From the NCBI GenBank assembly GCA_965218435.1, contig CBDCKW010000005.1, forward strand, positions 1 through 64,000: a stretch of 64,000 bases of DNA, in the 5' to 3' direction. Below, in pieces: positions 53,107 through 63,729 of the stretch. Every line of letters begins with the position of its first letter. The first letter of the stretch is position 1. The notes under the pieces were generated by a model. The model was not told the origin of the DNA. It saw only the letters and a program-made list of their open reading frames with translations, and made no database searches. The position numbers and the translations under genes are program-made. The stretch is from Truepera sp. GTDB taxonomy: Bacteria > Deinococcota > Deinococci > Deinococcales > Trueperaceae.

Positions 53107-53922
53107 TCAAAGCTCAGACCCTCCTCCGCGAGAATGCACGCGCGTATAGTGCGCCTTAGCTTTGCCGAGGCGTCGCCAGAGGTCGGGGTCAATAGGGATA
53201 GGCCGGACACTCCCGCTAGCGAGCGAGTAGAACGCCCCGTGATAGGTCAGCGTCCCGTGCCGCAACAGCTGCCAGAGCAGATTTAGAATAGTTGTTGCAG
53301 CGAAGTCGTTGACCAGTAGGTCTTGCTTTGTAAGCGCCTCGAGCGTGCTACAGCTGGGCAGGTCGTCTTCGGGAATACGCGTGTCGCAGAGTTCGGGAAA
53401 GAGTTCGTACGCGATGCGTAGGCGCTCTTGCTTCCGGCGATTGTAGTAGCCCAGGGGTTGTCCCAGCACGACCTGACCGGTGCTGGCAAGATTCCCGGCA
53501 GAGACGTGGTAGACGACCCGGTGGAGCCCCCCTGCAATCGTTGCCCTGGCTGCGCGTGTATCTACGCAGTCAATCACTAGCTTGGGGGCGTCGTAGGCGT
53601 CGGCGCAGCCTCTATCGAGGTTCTGCGGCTGCGCCCGCCAGTCGAGGCCACACGAAAGGTTGAGGCGGTTGATCAAGACCTCGGCTTTATTGAGACCCAC
53701 ATCTGATGGGTAGAAGCTCTGCCGGACGAGGTTACTTTCGCTTACGGTGTCGCCGTCGGCGAGGACGACCTCGAGGCCGGGATAGCCGAGCGCCCGGAGA
53801 CCCTGGTGGATGTTCTTGAGGCCGACGACGACCTTCGAGCCTGTCCCGCCAGCACCCACAACGAGCGTTCGGATGGGCATTCTGGAGTCTTGAAAGTACG
53901 GGTGCAAGGTGTGGCTAAGCAT
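53107..53922 (-). CDS. PRTRC-system ThiF (E1-like) protein
   Basis: VVGAGGTG, DGD.V.ESNL.RQ, DCVD..AR, DDLPSCS.LEAL..Q. Confidence 0.9.
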   Translation of the reverse strand: MLSHTLHPYFQDSRMPIRTLVVGAGGTGSKVVVGLKNIHQGLRALGYPGLEVVLADGDTVSESNLVRQSFYPSDVGLNKAEVLINRLNLSCGLDWRAQPQNLDRGCADAYDAPKLVIDCVDTRAARATIAGGLHRVVYHVSAGNLASTGQVVLGQPLGYYNRRKQERLRIAYELFPELCDTRIPEDDLPSCSTLEALTKQDLLVNDFAATTILNLLWQLLRHGTLTYHGAFYSLASGSVRPIPIDPDLWRRLGKAKAHYTRVHSRGGGSEL

Positions 53923-54634
53923 GAAAGAGGTCTCCGAGTGTTTCAGTAAGGGGAACCAGCTGCTCAGTAGGGAAGTGGCCCTCTTCTCTGACCCGCTGCC
54001 AGAGTTCGCCCATCGTGCCGCCCCAGTTGCGGTAGAGCAAGTTCGATGAGCCGTGAGTAAAAGCCGAGGCGAAAAAACCGCTCGAGTACCCTGCGGTGTC
54101 TTTCACACTCAGCGTGTCAGGTAGCGACGTTGACCCTAAACAGACGCCGCTAGTCGAAGTGTTCCAATAGGGCGCAGTGTAGAGCCTCGAGGCTGCGGTG
54201 GGGCGTTCATCGTTGTCTAAAGCCAGCACCCGCAGGCTTCTGTGACCTGCGATAAAGAGCAGGGGAGACTGCGGAAAACTCGAGCCCGAAAGCTGCGTGA
54301 GCAGGGGGTCATTACATGCATAAAACATCACCCGCTCCCTAGCAGGCTCGAACCACACGAGGTTCTCGTTGTTGGCGGCCAGGACGTGCGGCGGCAGCAG
54401 CTCGAGGCCGGACACCGGACTGAGGGCTTGAGAAAGTTCACGGACGGCCTCGACGTTTGCGAGGGTGCCTGGCTCGAGCATAGGTGTCGCGCCGTCGTAA
54501 CGCACTGTGTGGACCGACGCGAAGGTGTCTGCGGGTGCGCCGTAGGTGTCGCAGGCATTTTCGTAGATCAAAATGGCCTTTTTAAGCATGACCTCGTTGT
54601 GATAGCCGAGTTGTACCTGCACGTCGATACTCAT
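53915..54634 (-). CDS. PRTRC-system protein B (prokaryotic E2 family D)
   Basis: LY.AP.WN..GVCLG, FFASAFTH. Confidence 0.88.
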   Translation of the reverse strand: MSIDVQVQLGYHNEVMLKKAILIYENACDTYGAPADTFASVHTVRYDGATPMLEPGTLANVEAVRELSQALSPVSGLELLPPHVLAANNENLVWFEPARERVMFYACNDPLLTQLSGSSFPQSPLLFIAGHRSLRVLALDNDERPTAASRLYTAPYWNTSTSGVCLGSTSLPDTLSVKDTAGYSSGFFASAFTHGSSNLLYRNWGGTMGELWQRVREEGHFPTEQLVPLTETLGDLFHA

Positions 54635-55803
54635 GCCATCGCCTCCAGGGCGTAAAAGAGTGCGTTCGTCTGTTCGAGGATGAGCCTACACACCGTTAGG
54701 GCGTCTTTTAGAGTCGTCAGCGTTTCGGGATCGTCAGGGTCGAAGCCAAGGGCGTAGGTTGGTTGAAAGTCCGTTCCCGCCTGCCAGATCTGCTGCTCAT
54801 ACTCGCCGTAGACCTCCCGCACCAGGTCGTGGTCGCCGCCAAGCGTGACGATAACGCCAAAAGGCAGTTCGCCCTCGATCAGGTCGTCAATGTGCCGGTC
54901 GCGTTCAGGGAGCGCCCCTTGCAGTTCAGCAAGTTTTTCCAGCGCTGTGATGATGGGCAATGCCTGCTCGAGCTTCTCAGTGCAGAGACCCCTACACCTC
55001 TCGAGGCTTAAAGCGCCGTGTTCCTGGTAGCGGGGCTCGAGGCGCGCATCGACCTTTTGGCTGGTCAGGAAGTGTTCCTGGGCGTAGGCAACGACATCCT
55101 CGTGGGTAAAAGCTTCTTTCCTGTCGCTGAACTGGTACCCGAGTTCTTCCTCGGCTTCTTCCAGCAACATACTGTCGTCGTCCATTCCTTGCCAGTAGTG
55201 CCAGCGGATGATGTCTTTGGCGACTTCGGGTGTAAACGCCGGGGTCAGGTCGAGCGTGCGGTAGACGTGCCCGAGGATGCTCGGGCCGAGCTGCGGCTCC
55301 AGCTTGTCGAACGCCGTCGCCGCCGCGTCAAAGGAGATGACCGGAACGCCGCCGACGAATACCAGCAGGTAGTGACGCCCTTGTTCCTCGAACTTTGCGA
55401 CCCGAAATGCGAGGTCGAATCCCGGATAGCCGAGGCTGTTGCCGAGCGTTCGGGTGATGGCCTTCTCGATGAGTGCGTTCGGGCTGCTGTAGGGCGCGTC
55501 GTCGCACTCGTGGACGAGTCCGACCTCGAGTAGCCTCAGCGCGAGCTGAGCCGAGGCAGCCTGCTCATTGTCAAGGCTGTAGTGCGAGGGGACACCCTCC
55601 AGCCGGGGAAGCGCTAGTCCAGCATAGGCAGGGAGGATGAAGGTGGGCGTTTGGCGGGTTTTCCTGTCCGACTGCTCAGCCGGGCGAGAAGCTGACCGAC
55701 GGCCTGCGCGTGCGGGTCCTTGAGGTAAGCCTGCACGAGGGGTGGGTTGTGCGTTTTGCCCGAGGTGCTCCGGGCGAGTTTCTCTTCGAGTGGGGACACG
55801 CAT
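54631..55803 (-). CDS. PRTRC-system protein F-like
   Basis: Operon position (F-B-ThiF, overlapping stops/starts); LALPRL.GVP, WQGMDD acidic motif. Confidence 0.65.
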   Translation of the reverse strand: MRVPTRRETRPEHLGQNAQPTPRAGLPQGPARAGRRSASRPAEQSDRKTRQTPTFILPAYAGLALPRLEGVPSHYSLDNEQAASAQLALRLLEVGLVHECDDAPYSSPNALIEKAITRTLGNSLGYPGFDLAFRVAKFEEQGRHYLLVFVGGVPVISFDAAATAFDKLEPQLGPSILGHVYRTLDLTPAFTPEVAKDIIRWHYWQGMDDDSMLLEEAEEELGYQFSDRKEAFTHEDVVAYAQEHFLTSQKVDARLEPRYQEHGALSLERCRGLCTEKLEQALPIITALEKLAELQGALPERDRHIDDLIEGELPFGVIVTLGGDHDLVREVYGEYEQQIWQAGTDFQPTYALGFDPDDPETLTTLKDALTVCRLILEQTNALFYALEAMA

Positions 55804-55826
55804 AAGCCTCCTTTGGCAGATAAATG

Positions 55827-55848
55827 CAGGGCAACCGAAGTTGCCCTG
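55827..55848 (-). other. 9-bp stem with cUUCGg tetraloop upstream of protein-F RBS
   Basis: Minus strand CAGGGCAAC-TTCG-GTTGCCCTG. Confidence 0.6.
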
Positions 55849-55928
55849 GAAACTTATACCCAGGTTCTAAATGCACATTACGGCTTGGCTGAGACTGACT
55901 TTAAGCTGCACCTCGAGCCGTGTGCCAA

Positions 55929-56414
55929 TCAACGTCCTTCATTGGCAAGTCGTGCGTCGAAGCGGAAAGACCGGGGAGCCTCGATGGTCAGCTCTGTGAA
56001 CTGCGGGTGTTCGGGGTTGAGCAGATAGTTCCGTTCCTCGGGCACGATGACGCTGGGGACGGCTAAGGCGACGCTCGCCTGCGCCGCCAGCCACGCATCC
56101 CCAACTCGCCTCGCACCGTCGCTGACCGCCCTTACCTGCCAGTCTTCGGGCAAGTCCTGCTGGCGCAGCTCGAGAACGAGCCGTTCGGGAATCGCGAGCT
56201 TGAAAACCACGTACTCCCGCTCGAAGCGCCGCCTGTCGGCGTGAACCAGCGTTTCCAGCGCGGCGAGTGACAAACTCCCACTGACGTAGACAACGCGTCT
56301 ACCCGGTGTGTTCCAGCGTCCGCCGAAACGCCGTGCGCCTTCACCGTTAAAGGCGTCGGCTCGGCTGCCATACCTGGATCTGACGAGTCGCCAAGCCGTG
56401 AACACCTCAGCCAC
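55929..56414 (-). CDS. RES-domain toxin
   Basis: WRL, GGRWN, Y.S.SLSLA.LE, VPS.IVP.E.NYLLNP.H. Confidence 0.93.
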   Translation of the reverse strand: MAEVFTAWRLVRSRYGSRADAFNGEGARRFGGRWNTPGRRVVYVSGSLSLAALETLVHADRRRFEREYVVFKLAIPERLVLELRQQDLPEDWQVRAVSDGARRVGDAWLAAQASVALAVPSVIVPEERNYLLNPEHPQFTELTIEAPRSFRFDARLANEGR

Positions 56415-56434
56415 AAAGGTCGTTGAAACGCCGG

Positions 56435-56869
56435 TTAACTGTAAATGCCGTAGTCGATCCGCCCGAGCAGGTTCTCGACCTCTCTTGCGCCGATCTCGGT
56501 ATCGGCGTAGCCCAGCGGCGTGAGGTTGCCCAGGCTCAGATTTGGTGTTTTAAGCCACGCCGCTGCGTCACCGACGTCTTCAAATACCTGTGCGGCGCGC
56601 TCGAGCAAGTTGGCCAGGCGGAGTACGTGTTCGCTTTCGTCCGGGGCCAACCGGCCTGCACGCTTACGGCGGGTCAACGTGGTTCCGCTGATTCCTGCCA
56701 GGTTTGCAAGCATCGCGTCGCTGACGCCCAGTGCCTCAGCGAGCGTGCGAAAGACCTGAATGGGCAACCCGCTCCTTACGACCTCAATCAGGTCACGTGG
56801 GCGGTTCGTCAGACCTAACGTCTGTAAGACGCCCGTTGACCGAAACGGGGGGGGGACAAATGCATCCAT
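56435..56869 (-). CDS. Xre/MbcA/ParS antitoxin (leaderless)
   Basis: TLTRRK..L..DESE, A..WL..PN..LG..PL, LGRIDYG. Confidence 0.93.
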   Translation of the reverse strand: MDAFVPPPFRSTGVLQTLGLTNRPRDLIEVVRSGLPIQVFRTLAEALGVSDAMLANLAGISGTTLTRRKRAGRLAPDESEHVLRLANLLERAAQVFEDVGDAAAWLKTPNLSLGNLTPLGYADTEIGAREVENLLGRIDYGIYS

Positions 56870-57000
56870 ATGGTTAGTTTAGCATAGCCATGTGAACCGT
56901 AGCAAAAATTTTTGAAACCAAGAAGACGTTTGCAGGTCGTATATACGCATGTAAGGGTTGTTTATACTTTTAGGTGCGAGGATGGCAGGCTGTCGTGCTG

Positions 57001-57453
57001 TCATGGTCGTCGATACTCCCAGATGCTCACGGTGTCGGGCAATGTATCCAGCAGTTTGAGGACTTGGGCTCGAGGTAAACCGCCCTGCCCGATACCAGGG
57101 AAGTTGAGGTAAACCTGTGCTGTAGGGTGGCACTCGCACCAGCGTCGTAGCTTGGTGGCCGCCTCGCTGATAAGGCTGAGCTGGGCCGGGTCTTTCCAGT
57201 GCAATTTCGTCTGAAACGCCCCAAGTCTCGCCTCGGGCCAGCGCGGGCTCACGAGCAGCCCGTAGTGTTTACCTTGCTCGAGAACGACTTTGCCGAGTGC
57301 TTGGTCGAGACCAGGGAAGCGGTCACGGGCTTCTTTAGCAATACCAGCTCCCATCACGAGCTTGCCTTGCAAGGTCAAGGTCGCATTGGCCGCAATGAGA
57401 AAGAGGTCGGCCTCGGAAAAGACCGACCACATATCGCCTTGGCGCAGCTTCAC
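57001..57453 (-). CDS. Stand-alone macrodomain (ADP-ribose-binding/hydrolase) protein
   Basis: GD, N, VMGAGIA, F.TK.HW, PGIG.GGL; GGAGG RBS. Confidence 0.8.
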   Translation of the reverse strand: MKLRQGDMWSVFSEADLFLIAANATLTLQGKLVMGAGIAKEARDRFPGLDQALGKVVLEQGKHYGLLVSPRWPEARLGAFQTKLHWKDPAQLSLISEAATKLRRWCECHPTAQVYLNFPGIGQGGLPRAQVLKLLDTLPDTVSIWEYRRP

Positions 57454-57633
57454 GTTGCACCTCCTTGAAGCTATGCTGCACCCTAAAGTGCAAAGCTGCT
57501 TTATGAGGTTGTAGCAAGGCGGCTTTGGAGCCGCTTGCAAGAGGGTATCGAGACGTTTCTACAGCGTTTTGGAAAAGACTTTTCAGGCATGGCAGACCGA
57601 CGTCCTTTTGGAAATCTTAGCCCCAGAGTAAAC

Positions 57634-60023
57634 GCTGGGTAAAGAAGTGGCATTACTGCCACTCCCTCCCCTAAGAACCGGACGTGCGAGTTTCCCCGCA
57701 TCCGGCTCAAGCTGTTCAAAGCCCCGGTGTTGGGGCCAGTTTCACAGCGTCGAATCGTCGGCTATGAATCTGACTATGGCAGTTGGGATGGATCATCAGC
57801 AAGTTGGATTGTCGATTATCACCGCCGCTGGCTCGTGGGATAATGTGATGGACATGCCATCCCTGTTCTCCCGTAAGCTTTTGGCGGCATACCGGACATG
57901 TTCCTCCTTGTTTTAGCCAAAGGGAACGCAACCTCTGTCGTCCGTCTAGTGAGGTCCTCATTTTGAAGGTCAAACGCTCTTCAAAGTAGGCTTCCCACCG
58001 GGGGTCGAACGGGTTGGCCTCCGTTTTGACCTTGATGTGTCGCTTAATGGGTACGTCGCCTGCGTTAAACAGTCTTGTCCATTGAGGCGTTCCATCGTTT
58101 AGGGTTTCCCCTGTTTTCGCCGCGAATACCCAGTTCCGGCTTCCCTTAGAGATGAAGTATTTATCCTTCAACCAGTGAGTGCCTTTGCCAGGATGACGGC
58201 GTTTTATCCAGCGCCATAGGGTTTGCCAAAGCTCTTTATTCACTGACTGAAACGTTTCGCTAGCAACAACATGTCTGTGATAGTTTGCCCATCCGCGTAT
58301 CACCGGGTTGAGTTGTTTAATCACATGGCTTTGTTTTGCCGTTGGCTGACGTTTCACGATTTCTCTGACTTTATCCAAGAACGTCTTGACGCTCTCTTTT
58401 GACGGCTTAATGAGTAGCTTGCCGTCGTACTTGCGGATATTTTGCCCTAAGAAATCGAACCCCTCTTCGATATGGGTGATTTTGGTTTTCTCTTGCGAGA
58501 GTTCCAAACCCCGAGCTGCCAGAAACTTGGTAATCAGGGGTTTAACTTCATTTTCTAACAACTCTTTTGAGTAGCCAGTCACAATGAAGTCGTCTGCATA
58601 CCGAATCAGATTGACCTTCTAGGTGAATCGTTTTCCATCAACCGTTTTCCGTTTGAAGCCTTTGGTTAACAGGCATTCGAGGTCATCCAGGGTCATATTC
58701 ATCAACGTTGGCGAGATGGGGCCGCCCTGCGGTGTCCCTGCCTCTGTTGGGTAGAGGGTCTTGTTGTCAATGAACCCAGCCTTCAGCCACTTGCGGAGCG
58801 TTACCTTGTCCGTGGGGATATGGTTCAGCATCCACTCGTGCTGAATCGTGTCGAAGCAGGCTTTGATGTCACCTTCCAGAATCCACTGAGCAGACGCTTT
58901 TGTTCCGAGGGAGTTAAAGCACCCTTCAATGGCGTCTGCCGTGCTTCGTTCTGGCCTGAACCCATACGAGTTCTTATCCGCTGTGGTCTCCGCGACGGGT
59001 TCGAGAGCCAGCAGGTAAAGTGCCTGCATCGCTCTATCCTTCATCGTGGGAATACCCAGCGGGCGCATCTTGCCATTGCTCTTAGGGATCCCGCCTCAGC
59101 GGGCTTGGTTTGTAACCATGCCGTTTGAGGGACACGATGGCTTGAGATTTGGCCGCCGGGGTGGACCAGGTTGCCCCGTCTACACCCGGCGTGTTCTTGC
59201 CTTGATTCTCCGTCACTCGCCTGACAGCTAAAGCTTTGGCCGAGAACGAGTGGGTCAGCGTCCACTGCAAGGCTTTCACCTTGCCATGTCGGCCTTCCTG
59301 TGTCGCCTTTACAATACGCGCCTGGAGTTTCCTCACCGTTTGGTAGCACTTGGCCCAGTCGATGCTGTGCCAGTCCACGTTTGAGTGGGAGGATGCACAC
59401 GCTTTAGCGTTCATTTGCCTTTCCTCCTTAAGAGATTCTTCAAGCTCCCTTGTAACGAACAACCATACGGAAGTCTGCCCGCTTTCGCGTGGGGTGATGT
59501 CGCGGCTGCTCAACCCCTATCTGCCCCATTACAGAGCAGCGTTCGCTTTCTCCGCGCTCCTCTACCCACAGCCCTATCGGCCCGCCTTGCGGCTTGCTTT
59601 CCTTTACAGGAGGACTATGGGCTTACCGTGTTTCATCTAAGTAACAACGATGGGTTAGACCCTGCCTCTTCACCGGTGGCCGTTTTATCCGTGTAACCCC
59701 AGCCAAGAACAGGGTTAACTGAGCCACGTACCTTTTGGTTCAAGCCTGTCAGCGTCTTTGGCTTGTTCTTGATGACGATGTTTATCAGCAGTTCACATGT
59801 GTTGGTCATACCATCGAGCCCAGTCCCCTGACCGCTTTACGCTAGCAGCCAACGCTTTTACCTCACGGTTCGTGCGTAATCTTTCGATTCGGGTACTCTT
59901 TTCTCGGCAGCTTCACACCAGAGCGTTACCACCCTCGCATGTGCCGATAGGCTACTGTTGACGGAACAACAGGTTTTGTCGTCAGAGACGCAAAACAATT
60001 ACTTAGACGACTTCACGTCGCAC
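57634..60023 (-). mobile_element. Group II intron (IIB, EcI5/CL1-like)
   Basis: 5' GTGCGACGTGAAGTCG at 60023; domain V GAGCCGGATGCGGGGAAACTCGCACGTCCGGTTC and domain VI ending ACCCAGC (3' end approximate). Confidence 0.9.
57716..59414 (-). pseudogene. ltrA: Intron-encoded RT/maturase/HNH protein, inactivated
   Basis: TPGVDG, RPLGIPT, GTPQGG, YADD, HNH; frameshift near 59085 and in-frame TAG at 58619. Confidence 0.92.
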
Positions 60024-60584: not shown

Positions 60585-60755
60585 TTACCGTTCGGGCCAG
60601 AGCGACAACCAGCGAGTACCGTAACGTGCGGCGGCGCGCCGATGTGCGGGACGAGCCGCGGAGAGTGTCGTAAAGCGCCGGGTGCAGCCTGTTTTGCGGT
60701 AGGTGAGCACCCAACCTTTTGCCTGTCCAGCTATCGTATGGGCGACTTGGTTCAT
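60585..60755 (-). CDS. Small basic hypothetical protein (56 aa)
   Basis: AAAGGAAGG RBS; MNQVAHTIAGQAKGWVLTYRK...LWPER. Confidence 0.5.
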   Translation of the reverse strand: MNQVAHTIAGQAKGWVLTYRKTGCTRRFTTLSAARPAHRRAAARYGTRWLSLWPER

Positions 60756-60948
60756 ATGAGGCACCTTCCTTTCGAGAAGTTGCCCCCATGCTGCTCGTGT
60801 TAGCGAGCGTCCTTTTTAAGTTGTAGGCGAGCTTAGCGTTCAGAATTGGTTGTGCGTCTGCTTGCGGCGCTTGGTCCGGCGAAAGACGAACCACAAAGGA
60901 AACGACACGAACCAGAAGAACGTCAAGCCCGTGTCGACGATGCTTTGT

Positions 60949-61440
60949 CTAATTGAGGTTCCCCTGCGCCGCTCGCCTTTTGAGCAGCCCGTCGATACGC
61001 CGGACGATGCTGTCAAGCGTCGCCTGCGCTTCATTGGAGTCTTGCAAGCTCACCTGCACGTCGTTCTCGCCGAACTCGAGCCGGGGCTCGCCGTTACCCA
61101 GCCACTCACGCACGAAGGTCAAACCCTGCACGTAACCGCTGAGCTGCGCGACCTTGGTCTCGAGGGTCAGGTAGAGCGCCAGTTCATCTCGCTCGAACGC
61201 TCTACTACGCTCGGCCTTAAGGCGTTCGAGCGCGATCTGAGCGTCTTCGAGGCTCCGGTCGAGTTCAGGCAAGATGCCGTCCAGTTCGTCTAAATCGTCA
61301 CGGTAGCCTTCACCTGGCAGCGCGCTGCCGAGGATAAACACCTCATCGTCCGCTTCATAATAGACCTGGCGTTTGACATCGTGCTCGTCCTCGGTCTCGA
61401 ACAGCCCGTCTCGGTCTTTATCTTTCATGAGCTTTAGCAT
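60949..61440 (-). CDS. Acidic coiled-coil hypothetical protein
   Basis: GAGGAG RBS; heptad-rich helices. Confidence 0.7.
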   Translation of the reverse strand: MLKLMKDKDRDGLFETEDEHDVKRQVYYEADDEVFILGSALPGEGYRDDLDELDGILPELDRSLEDAQIALERLKAERSRAFERDELALYLTLETKVAQLSGYVQGLTFVREWLGNGEPRLEFGENDVQVSLQDSNEAQATLDSIVRRIDGLLKRRAAQGNLN

Positions 61441-61555
61441 AACGTTGTCTCCTCGTTTGGGTGTAAGAAAGGGAGAAGAACCTAAACCAGGTTTAGGTTC
61501 AGGTTCTTCGTCGACACGTTATACGAGATAACGTGCCCGCCTGAGTGCTCAGGTC

Positions 61556-62857
61556 TTAGGCAGCGTTCACAGTCTGCTCGAGCGTCTTAAAGCCGTCCAT
61601 GATGCTCGGGATCATCCGGGCATTCGTGGCCGCTTCAAGTCTCGCGTGGGCAAGAGCTGCGACAACACCTTTCGGCGCTTTACGATCACTTTGCTTGAGC
61701 TGCGTTTCAAGCAAGGTGACGATGGTCTCGGGCACGTCGGCTTCCGCTTCGTCCCTGGCCTCGGCATCATCGGCTTTGATAAGCTCACGTCGAGCTTTTA
61801 CCTCAGCGGTGACTTTCTCGGCCGTTTTGCGACCTTCGAGCCATGCGTCCGATGGTGCTTCTATGGGCCAGCGAGGACCCTGGGTACGTGGTGCCGGTTG
61901 TACCCTGATAGGTTTCGCCAACTCCGCTGCCCAGTAACCTGCACTCCCACCGCGACCACCTTTCTGCGGCGGCAGCGGGGGCACGAAGTCACTTACCTTC
62001 GGCCCGCCTGCCAGCTCAGCTAACGCGTCCTGGTAACTTGCTTCACCCGCTTCGGAGACAAGCTCGTCGGCACGTTCGGCGACCAGAGCGCGTTCTTCGA
62101 TGTCGTCTTCATCACCAAAGTGGGGTGACAGAAGCGGATCGAGGTTGCGGCTGGTGTCTCTGACAAACCGCGCGTGCTCAAAGCTCGGGGCTGAAGCACC
62201 GAACAAAGAAACGCGGCGTATCGGATCACGGGCGTCGAGTTCGGCGGCTTCTTTCCAGGTGATGTCGGCCTTGTACCCAAGACGCTGTATCACCCCGAAG
62301 TCCCGACCGCTGTTCTGCATGAAGTCTTCTTCAAGGTCCCACGGCGCGACTTTGGTCAGCGTAAGTGACCTGGTCAGCGGGTGGGTGCGTTTGACGAGCG
62401 TGTGCCAGCCATTTCTGGAGGCGGACTGCTCATCCCACAGCTCTCGAAGAAGCTCTTTGAGAACGCGGCGGTGGTTTCTCTTGCAGCGGAGGTCTAAACG
62501 ACCCGAAGCTGCTGCGGGGGCGACTTTGTTCACCACGAACTTGGCGAAGTTCGGATTGTTACGCAGCCGCTGCCCGAACTCTTTCCTGACCATCTGCTCA
62601 CGCGAACGCCGGTTGACGTCGTCAGCAGAGGACGAGTAAAAAGAGAAGAGCACCACATCCGAATTCACGAGGCGGACGAGGAGCCTCATGGCGAGAGGGC
62701 GGACGTCATCGGGACAGACAAGTCGAACGTTTCCGTCCAACACATCTGCTGCTCTCTTACGAGCTTCCTGGGCAAACTTGGCGTCTGCCTGATAGCGCCC
62801 CAGAAACCCTTTGACACTCTGACCAAACACAAACGTATCCTCCTGCTGGTTTTGCAT
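61556..62857 (-). CDS. Orphan hypothetical protein, 433 aa
   Basis: Long ORF; AAAGGGG RBS before ATG at 62857. Confidence 0.75.
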   Translation of the reverse strand: MQNQQEDTFVFGQSVKGFLGRYQADAKFAQEARKRAADVLDGNVRLVCPDDVRPLAMRLLVRLVNSDVVLFSFYSSSADDVNRRSREQMVRKEFGQRLRNNPNFAKFVVNKVAPAAASGRLDLRCKRNHRRVLKELLRELWDEQSASRNGWHTLVKRTHPLTRSLTLTKVAPWDLEEDFMQNSGRDFGVIQRLGYKADITWKEAAELDARDPIRRVSLFGASAPSFEHARFVRDTSRNLDPLLSPHFGDEDDIEERALVAERADELVSEAGEASYQDALAELAGGPKVSDFVPPLPPQKGGRGGSAGYWAAELAKPIRVQPAPRTQGPRWPIEAPSDAWLEGRKTAEKVTAEVKARRELIKADDAEARDEAEADVPETIVTLLETQLKQSDRKAPKGVVAALAHARLEAATNARMIPSIMDGFKTLEQTVNAA

Positions 62858-63125
62858 GTCTTTCCCCTTTCTTACAACTGAGTTCAGACAGACCTGAGAC
62901 TTGGTAGTTTGGCCTATCTGCTGTGAGCCTAGCAAACCCTGGAAATCCCTGTGCTGTTTAGGTGCGTAAGGGACGCAAAAACGGCGTACACGCAGCAAAG
63001 GATTTGCACCCCGATAGAGTTGGTGCTACACTCTAGGGGCATTTCAATCCTTCTGGATTGCACTGAGTTACCAGGCGGCAGAGTTTACTTGGTAGTTGCT
63101 CACTGCCTGGGCTTTTCTTGCCCCG

Positions 63126-63153
63126 ACAACAAAAAAGCCCCGCACTGGGGCTC
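63126..63153 (-). terminator. Intrinsic terminator of the Uma2 gene
   Basis: AGCCCC-AGTGC-GGGGCT-TTTTTGTT. Confidence 0.75.
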
Positions 63154-63174
63154 GCGCACAAATTTGTGAAGGCG

Positions 63175-63729
63175 TTAGCTGTCGAACAGCTCGCTGATCG
63201 GCAGTTGCCATCCCGGTACAACTTCACCACCGTCGAGCGTGTCGTCTACCCCCAGAACCTTCACATCGGCATCGGGAGCGTGGACGAACACCTGCTGCCT
63301 GCGCGGGTTGACGACCACGACCATCTTGGAGCCCGCTTCCAGCCACTCGGCCACCTTGTCGCTCACCTCGGTGTAGAGATCAAAGGGGGAGACGACTAGG
63401 GCGGCCAGGTCGGGCGCACCGGGCCAGTAGCCCTGAACCGGGCCTACCTCGTCGAGCCGCTTCTGACTGATGAAAGCGGCGTCGGGTGCGCGGACGGTGT
63501 CGGGATTGCTGGCGAGTTTGAAGCCCGTTTCGGCGGCGTAGACCTTACCGAGCCTTTTGGCCTTCACGAAGTTTCGCAGCTCGGCAGCGAACTCGAGCGC
63601 GAGCATTCCATGTTCGTTTCCTGCGGGTGCCATCTTCTTCAGCTCCCCCTTTACTAGTTCATAGCGAAAGCCGTCGTTGGGACAGCGGAGGAGTTCGTCG
63701 GCTGTGGTTAGCTGTACCTGGGTGGTCAC
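63175..63729 (-). CDS. Uma2 family (DUF820) endonuclease-like protein
   Basis: YELVKG, VRAPDAAF, GAPDL..VVSP; the usual catalytic Glu appears replaced (AALVVSP). Confidence 0.9.
   Translation of the reverse strand: MTTQVQLTTADELLRCPNDGFRYELVKGELKKMAPAGNEHGMLALEFAAELRNFVKAKRLGKVYAAETGFKLASNPDTVRAPDAAFISQKRLDEVGPVQGYWPGAPDLAALVVSPFDLYTEVSDKVAEWLEAGSKMVVVVNPRRQQVFVHAPDADVKVLGVDDTLDGGEVVPGWQLPISELFDS

Follow-up and report, generated by a model that had tools for sequence, protein, structure and literature searches.

We analyzed a single open reading frame (ORF) in the last part of the window, by which we mean the whole 64,000-nucleotide stretch of DNA under study. The frame runs on the minus strand from 62857 to 61556 and is the only ORF between two inverted sequence arms. 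The features of the region are listed below in order of position.

60949..61440, minus strand: next gene, 163 aa, no family; in read-through RNA its Shine-Dalgarno (SD) sequence would pair locally, and less strongly, with the left arm
61462..61479, minus strand: left arm, comprising the base of the terminator stem and the pyrimidine tail; predicted to serve as anti-SD at the 3' end of the mRNA
61475..61509, minus strand: predicted intrinsic terminator with a 14-bp stem
61540..61553, minus strand: conserved hairpin of the 3'-UTR with a variable tetraloop, containing one arm of a second, 9-bp inverted pair
61556..62857, minus strand: ORF of 433 aa, unnamed family; soluble, N-terminal part basic, C-terminal part helical
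62859..62876, minus strand: right arm, the extended SD region; pairs with the genome's own 16S 3' tail (-12.5 kcal/mol)
62877..62884, minus strand: target site 2, single-stranded, adjoining the SD
62885..62920, minus strand: predicted 5' leader hairpin, with target site 1 in its loop (62899-62909, variable base 62905)
62926..62934, minus strand: predicted extended -10 promoter of the mRNA, invariant in 4/4 aligned loci
63004..63032, plus strand: predicted small-RNA promoter (-35, 17 nt, extended -10), below the scan threshold
63039..63119, plus strand: predicted divergent small RNA of ~80 nt with 5' tail, terminator-like hairpin and U-rich end
63062-63069, plus strand: site 2 of the small RNA, in the 5' tail
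63087-63097, plus strand: site 1 of the small RNA, in the hairpin loop, with YUNR motif and variable base 63093
63135..63153, minus strand: terminator of the upstream Uma2 gene, which insulates the module

Two observations were made in the 3' region. The hairpin at 61540-61553 is followed by a GC-rich conserved motif and is kept in L003, X4, X7 and X10. A 10-bp hairpin lies at 61512-61536; its 3' arm has an alternative partner in the next gene's start region (61440-61455), a possible switch in read-through RNA.

The 433-aa protein gave no match in Pfam and NCBIfam, in line with the first-pass annotation, which had recognized no domain in the single ORF. It contains no membrane segment (maximum 19-residue hydropathy 1.45). 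We found 39 close homologs at 57-93% identity, and the profile search with the family listed 31 clusters at 50% identity. Full-length distant homologs (24-27% identity) occur in three of the 362 other genomes of the order, G036, G076 and G078; these were first found with a profile of the close homologs, and their E-values are inflated in a later profile, which contained them. When 16 distant members were run against Pfam, 15 had no match and one fell below cut-off. A DinI match was seen in 4/15 family members (best E 0.0009), the query itself being without it. The name "Mor family regulator", which P0032 carries in its source, was rejected as unsupported by Pfam, NCBIfam and structure scans. 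The Atlas search returned no usable match for the protein and the PDB sequence search none. Two AlphaFold models reached pLDDT values of 54.8 and 61.8, and Foldseek, a check of the kind that the first-pass annotation had suggested, returned no match at E<=0.001 for these low-confidence models, a result that bears little on the N-terminal part and on the presence of an RNase H-like transposase fold or a Rep fold. Structure comparison of the C-terminal part yielded helical-bundle matches only, all below Z 8. Scans of genomes and viruses revealed no further loci and PLSDB no locus, and the metagenome scan gave at least one. In N-terminally extended homologs the promoter region is kept and the loop varies. 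Proteins P0004 and P0007 share a source contig of 324,890 bases, which suggests that another genome, too, has two paralogs on one replicon.

Contig C5, to which the window belongs, is 685 kb long and carries a second copy of the gene at 307294-308592. The two proteins are 94% identical overall and identical over their first half. This paralog belongs to a 63-kb duplicated segment: window positions 1-63562 recur at C5:242532-309299 with about 97.6% identity (92.9% over the last 2.6 kb), and the small-RNA alleles of the two copies differ. A third copy (L002, C5:236268-236848) consists of Uma2, small RNA and leader, with the gene gone and the leader cut by a DDE_3 element. Neighbors in the window are PRTRC B, PRTRC ThiF, RES-Xre and Uma2. 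In G036 the homolog is accompanied by genes for DUF932, AAA, DUF2201, DUF6915 and PemK, in G076 it lies downstream of both VirD4 and SLT genes, and in G078 its neighbors are ParA, ParB and a CyRepA1 initiator. All these contexts are mobile DNA. Elsewhere in the window, positions 53107-57540 hold PRTRC ThiF, B and F-like genes, the RES-Xre pair and a DarG-like macrodomain gene with no recognized DarT beside it. A group II intron lies at 57634-59973; its reverse transcriptase frame is in three pieces in the window and in two in the duplicate. A small element whose perfect repeats are 18 nt or longer occurs nine times, at C5:295106-296032 and at eight places on C9, and one of these sits inside the duplicate of the PRTRC operon region.

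The two arms, 61462-61479 and 62859-62876, are complementary at 16 of 18 positions, and the inverted copies described in the first-pass annotation were thus found again. How unusual is such a repeat? In 16 of 3645 ORFs of the genome, the 5' flank has an inverted 18-nt match to the 3' flank that reaches 16/18 or better. Ten of these are perfect 18/18 repeats resembling IS ends, leaving six that include the gene studied here. The repeat alone is therefore uncommon and within reach of a window scan, and it is no proof of function; its significance comes from the homologs and not from the repeat itself. The second pair (61548-61556 and 62890-62898) is indeed an exact 9-bp match as reported, but as a long-range pairing it was rejected. 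Each arm is part of a local hairpin, and two local hairpins explain the arms better; moreover, the pairing is missing from the fold of the terminated transcript and variants show no co-variation.

A 16/18 repeat flanking one ORF could mark a 1.4-kb insertion sequence with TGT...ACA ends and an unrecognized transposase, as the first-pass annotation had considered. We take such ends to be typical of DDE insertion sequences (IS481, IS30, Tn7-like), and the terminal trinucleotides are the one point of likeness, present in the window copy only. The alignment of window and paralog runs through both arms with 92% identity on either side, arguing against an element boundary at the arms. In the paralog the left arm is identical and the TGT end of the right arm is lost. 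This end also varies in relatives, whose variants were read from runs X3, X4, X7 and X10 (4 of 23), and hence the TGT...ACA ends lack conservation. A search for target duplications of 2-13 bp at the repeat found none, and Pfam and NCBIfam showed no transposase or DDE family in the protein, as already noticed in the first reading. The paralog has the same neighbors, and L003 has an upstream Uma2-like gene. An empty site was not found in the own genome; in relatives the two ends were compared separately. The mobile-unit reading is largely refuted by these data and its probability is close to nil.

Two sequences in the interval from the gene to the Uma2 terminator are repeated on one strand: 62899-62909 equals 63087-63097, and 62877-62884 equals 63062-63069. 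A plus-strand transcript of the upstream unit would be complementary to two parts of the leader, the loop at -52 and the stretch at -27. The boundaries of the small RNA were set after the repeats were seen, and the small RNAs matched no Rfam family. In the predicted promoter of the small RNA the hexamers are conserved and the spacer is variable in 4/4 loci. Both promoters rest on conservation, since a consensus scan of 60600-63300 found none. The YUNR loop (UUGG at 63089-63092) is invariant in 4/4 loci. The first-pass annotation was silent on this divergent RNA, which the sequence comparison adds as a putative second key.

Co-variation is seen at both sites. At site 1, the bases of small RNA and leader match in 4/5 loci that carry both on one molecule (window, paralog, L003 and X7 contig 17), a count that leaves out the X4 alleles, with A dominant at both loop positions, and X7 contig 18, as these are unphased or incompletely tabulated. 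In X7 contig 17 both 62905 and 63093 changed from T to C, and 62882 and 63067 of site 2 also change together. The mismatching locus is the third copy, C5:236268, with its IS-cut leader and lost gene, where 949/1000 shuffles were as good. Its orphan RNA is predicted to cofold with the paralog leader no less strongly than the cognate RNA does (-18.9). At site 2, window, paralog and L003 each have a matched sequence of their own (8, 8, and 10 nt). Cognate cofolds of these three loci reach -19.5, -18.9, and -14.1 kcal/mol, compared to -5 to -11 for the six crossed pairs; the window RNA can still pair with the paralog loop through G-U (-15.8). Out of 1000 shuffles, the observed complementarity was reached by 1 for the window, 0 for the paralog, 10 for L003, 1 for G076 and 0 for G078. 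In a blind scan 32 of 2951 ORFs passed, with the window in second place and the paralog joint third.

Upstream of each of the three distant homologs there is a comparable antisense layout. In G076 a loop repeat of 12 nt lies at -52, with another sequence, and a site 2 of about 6 nt was seen by eye. The loop repeat of G078 is 8 nt long and lies at -51, and a further repeat of 15 nt lies at -26, again of other sequence. In G036 (L005:2636-2900), inspection by eye revealed an antisense-like promoter and terminator over the SD of a leader ORF of 57 codons that ends right at the homolog start. From its sequence this arrangement appears to be a cis version of this control. Loop and tail, each present twice, could instead be DNA sites, bound by protein or forming single-strand hairpins, and not a matter of RNA pairing; direct repeats on one strand and the lack of a promoter passing the consensus scan would suit this explanation. 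However, the sites co-vary between paralogs whose proteins share an identical first half. Furthermore, in the four close loci the upstream copy lies between a promoter-like pair of hexamers and a U tract, both on the opposite strand, and inspection by eye showed similar elements in G076 and G078. We regard DNA sites as highly improbable. Judged by sequence and co-variation, the upstream unit qualifies as a candidate antisense RNA complementary to the mRNA leader, and this predicted small RNA is the best-supported part of the system.

The right arm contains the ribosome-binding site of the gene, as the first-pass annotation had noticed. In the predicted fold of the terminated window transcript the terminator tail lies on the SD (P=1.00) and the leader hairpin is kept; the corresponding value for the paralog is P=0.78. 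A regulatory 5'-3' lock over the SD, as known for hok and aapA, had been favored in the first reading, and these folds, together with the complementarity in three distant homologs, speak for it. Among the 146 genes of the genome with an SD and a terminator-like hairpin, the pairing of SD and own tail is strongest for the window gene (-22.8 kcal/mol, median -8.4) and ranks 6th for the paralog (-16.8). No change in the left arm is listed in the main contigs of X4, X7, and X10. L003 shows no lock (-10.6). It leaves the window similarity about 50 nt after the stop and continues into what is presumably an IS, and this result is uninformative because the 3' region appears interrupted.

Co-variation of the repeat pair had been suggested as a check, and the outcome is divided: SD and tail pair in the three distant homologs, but the G036 fold lacks the lock. 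In G076 the pairing reaches -18.8 with unrelated sequence, and 31 of 2536 SD regions of the window's own genome (G000) pair as well with this tail. G036 reaches -21.0 with the better of two starts, where none of the 2536 SD regions is as good, and -14.4 with the other start, where 134 are. For the SD region of G078, the best partner in 4488 windows is the tail of a hairpin that lies about 250 nt beyond a second gene, a ranking that sets aside the SD site itself and the small-RNA region. The minimum-energy fold locks the SD in G078, and whole-transcript folds give 0.54 for G076 and P(SD-3')=0.00 for G036, where the lock does not form; in read-through folds the leader hairpin opens and the paralog SD pairs elsewhere, and folds of such 1.4-2.3 kb transcripts are unreliable. 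The models thus predict an SD hidden by an anti-SD in window, paralog, G076 and G078, and not in the G036 fold.

It could still be that only the small RNA works and that the repeat is a by-product, because purine-rich SDs and pyrimidine-rich tails pair partly from composition, with the pyrimidine-rich terminator tail acting locally on the SD of the next gene. Such local sequestration is indeed predicted, albeit at -8.8 versus -22.1 kcal/mol for the left arm on the own SD. The paralog pairing is not significant (matched by 102/500 shuffles), the G036 fold points the same way, and 6 of about 3635 non-IS ORFs reach 16/18. Crossed SD-tail pairs reach -15.2. On the contrary, the own tail is the best entry in every row of the SD x tail cross matrix and is among roughly the best 1% for window, paralog, G076 and G036 (ATG start), and G078 pairs in AT-rich DNA across its distance beyond a second gene. 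We consider a by-product somewhat unlikely. Release of the lock by single-stranded DNA, the other possibility raised in the first reading, found no support.

We propose, with a probability of roughly 60%, a double lock on translation of the 433-aa protein like that of type I toxin-antitoxin mRNAs, because the leader shares two co-varying sites with the small RNA and the SD pairs with the terminator tail. The matches, their co-variation and their positions are read from the DNA; the RNAs, their pairing in the cell and the activity of the protein are predicted. According to this model, mRNA and small RNA would start from back-to-back promoters. The small RNA would form a kissing contact between its own loop and that of the leader hairpin at -52, and its 5' tail would base-pair at -27 next to the SD, which would keep ribosomes from loading. 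Specificity would lie in one loop base and in the tail sequence, so that each copy would respond mainly to the RNA it encodes. In the finished transcript the terminator tail would fold onto the SD, and the message would stay inert as long as the tail is not trimmed back to the stem. Only in the absence of the small RNA would the protein be produced.

Provided that the locks exist, the most likely role may be that of an addiction or maintenance module of a mobile element, with a protein that is harmful after element loss, at somewhat less than even odds. An establishment pulse comes a close second and replication third. Addiction is favored because the pair of locks is a hallmark of type I toxin mRNAs (PMC6733600, PMC9841398), because the paralog-specific bases recall zor/orz (PMC3919570), and because G078 already has an initiator. 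We tentatively picture an addiction module in which a soluble protein of about 430 residues from a new family is controlled by an anti-SD lock across 1.4 kb and by a small RNA. Equally tentative is the idea that the small RNA was born from a partial duplication of the leader. Loop base and tail might also, with similar caution, form an orthogonal address code that lets several copies coexist per cell.

The same RNA locks could time an establishment pulse, where a new cell without the small RNA would allow brief translation from nascent mRNA, and allele-specific loops would let an incoming element escape the RNA of a resident relative. In accordance with this, the nascent leader has no predicted hairpin that would hide the SD, the gene stands first in operons of the backbone (PRTRC in the window; DUF932, AAA, DUF2201, and DUF6915 in G036) and it follows the VirD4 and SLT genes in G076. 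Nevertheless, no TrwC, MOB relaxase or coupling protein was found on C5 with the three families tried, and the G078 gene sits in a rep-par region; taken as a whole, this explanation is unlikely. It is improbable that the protein initiates replication, or helps in it, under copy-number control by an antisense RNA, with loop alleles as incompatibility determinants. A YUNR kissing loop with a variable base is shared with plasmid antisense systems (PMC4485353), the G078 gene is divergent from parA-parB and the N-terminus is basic. The G036 cis antisense over a coupled leader peptide also fits, an arrangement that, we assume, resembles copA/tap. Against replication, the G078 plasmid has its own CyRepA1 above cut-off 4.5 kb away, no Rep family is among the Pfam and NCBIfam matches, and the RNA is encoded apart from its target.

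An addiction module of the kind proposed would resemble several known systems in part. In hok/Sok and aapA/IsoA a 5'-3' long-distance lock is combined with an antisense RNA as second control (PMC6733600, PMC9841398). Likewise, the primary transcript here is predicted to be locked by 5'-3' pairing, with a far anti-SD over the SD as in aapA, 3' trimming is expected to activate it, and an antisense RNA would be the second control. In contrast, the mRNA is about 1.45 kb long, the product is soluble with 433 aa, the RNA is encoded apart from its target and no metastable SD hairpin is predicted. Type I toxin mRNAs measure 150-400 nt and encode toxins of 20-60 aa (PMC8594479). We do not file the gene as a type I member, because its 433 aa lie outside the 20-60 aa of small, usually hydrophobic toxins and its toxicity is putative. 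In zorO/orzO, tisB/istR and shoB/ohsC the small RNA is divergent with limited leader complementarity, and duplicated loci are distinguished by few bases (PMC3919570). These features recur here, but instead of the one 18-nt stretch given there, we find a pair of short sites, 8-12 nt in the loop and 8-15 nt in the tail, which keep their distances from the start of a large protein and are probably too short for RNase III.

CopA/CopT, RNAI/RNAII and pMV158 RNAII share the terminator-like hairpin, the YUNR loop and the 5' tail, and loop changes create new specificity groups in these systems (PMC4485353). Unlike these cis-encoded and fully complementary RNAs, the small RNA appears here as a partial duplication of the leader, encoded separately in the window clade, G076 and G078 and in cis only in G036, and its target is no recognizable Rep. 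Complementarity that comes from a partial leader duplication means that both copies must change together. EGeRS1/2 of conjugative plasmids, along with single-stranded DNA promoters, are comparable in placing a conserved structured region upstream of a backbone operon (PMC8708921). As described there, EGeRS1 spans 400-750 bp with no promoter found and its mechanism unexplained, EGeRS2 has a protein repressor, and an antisense RNA is reported for neither; a "zipper" antisense mechanism for pLS20 was likewise not found there.

A literature search, with supplements and most subscription journals outside its scope, found no description of such a system. In the literature considered here, the double RNA lock belongs to tiny toxin mRNAs (PMC6733600, PMC9841398). 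What we describe is likely an orphan 433-residue protein on mobile DNA that would be under the two-key RNA control of small toxin genes. To find a double lock on a message of 1.4 kb, coding for a large protein that belongs to no known family, would broaden this control logic, and it would flag the protein as one that a cell must not make at the wrong time. The natural alleles, with their matched changes at two sites, offer ready-made compensatory tests and may also serve as a small set of orthogonal trans-acting RNA switches.
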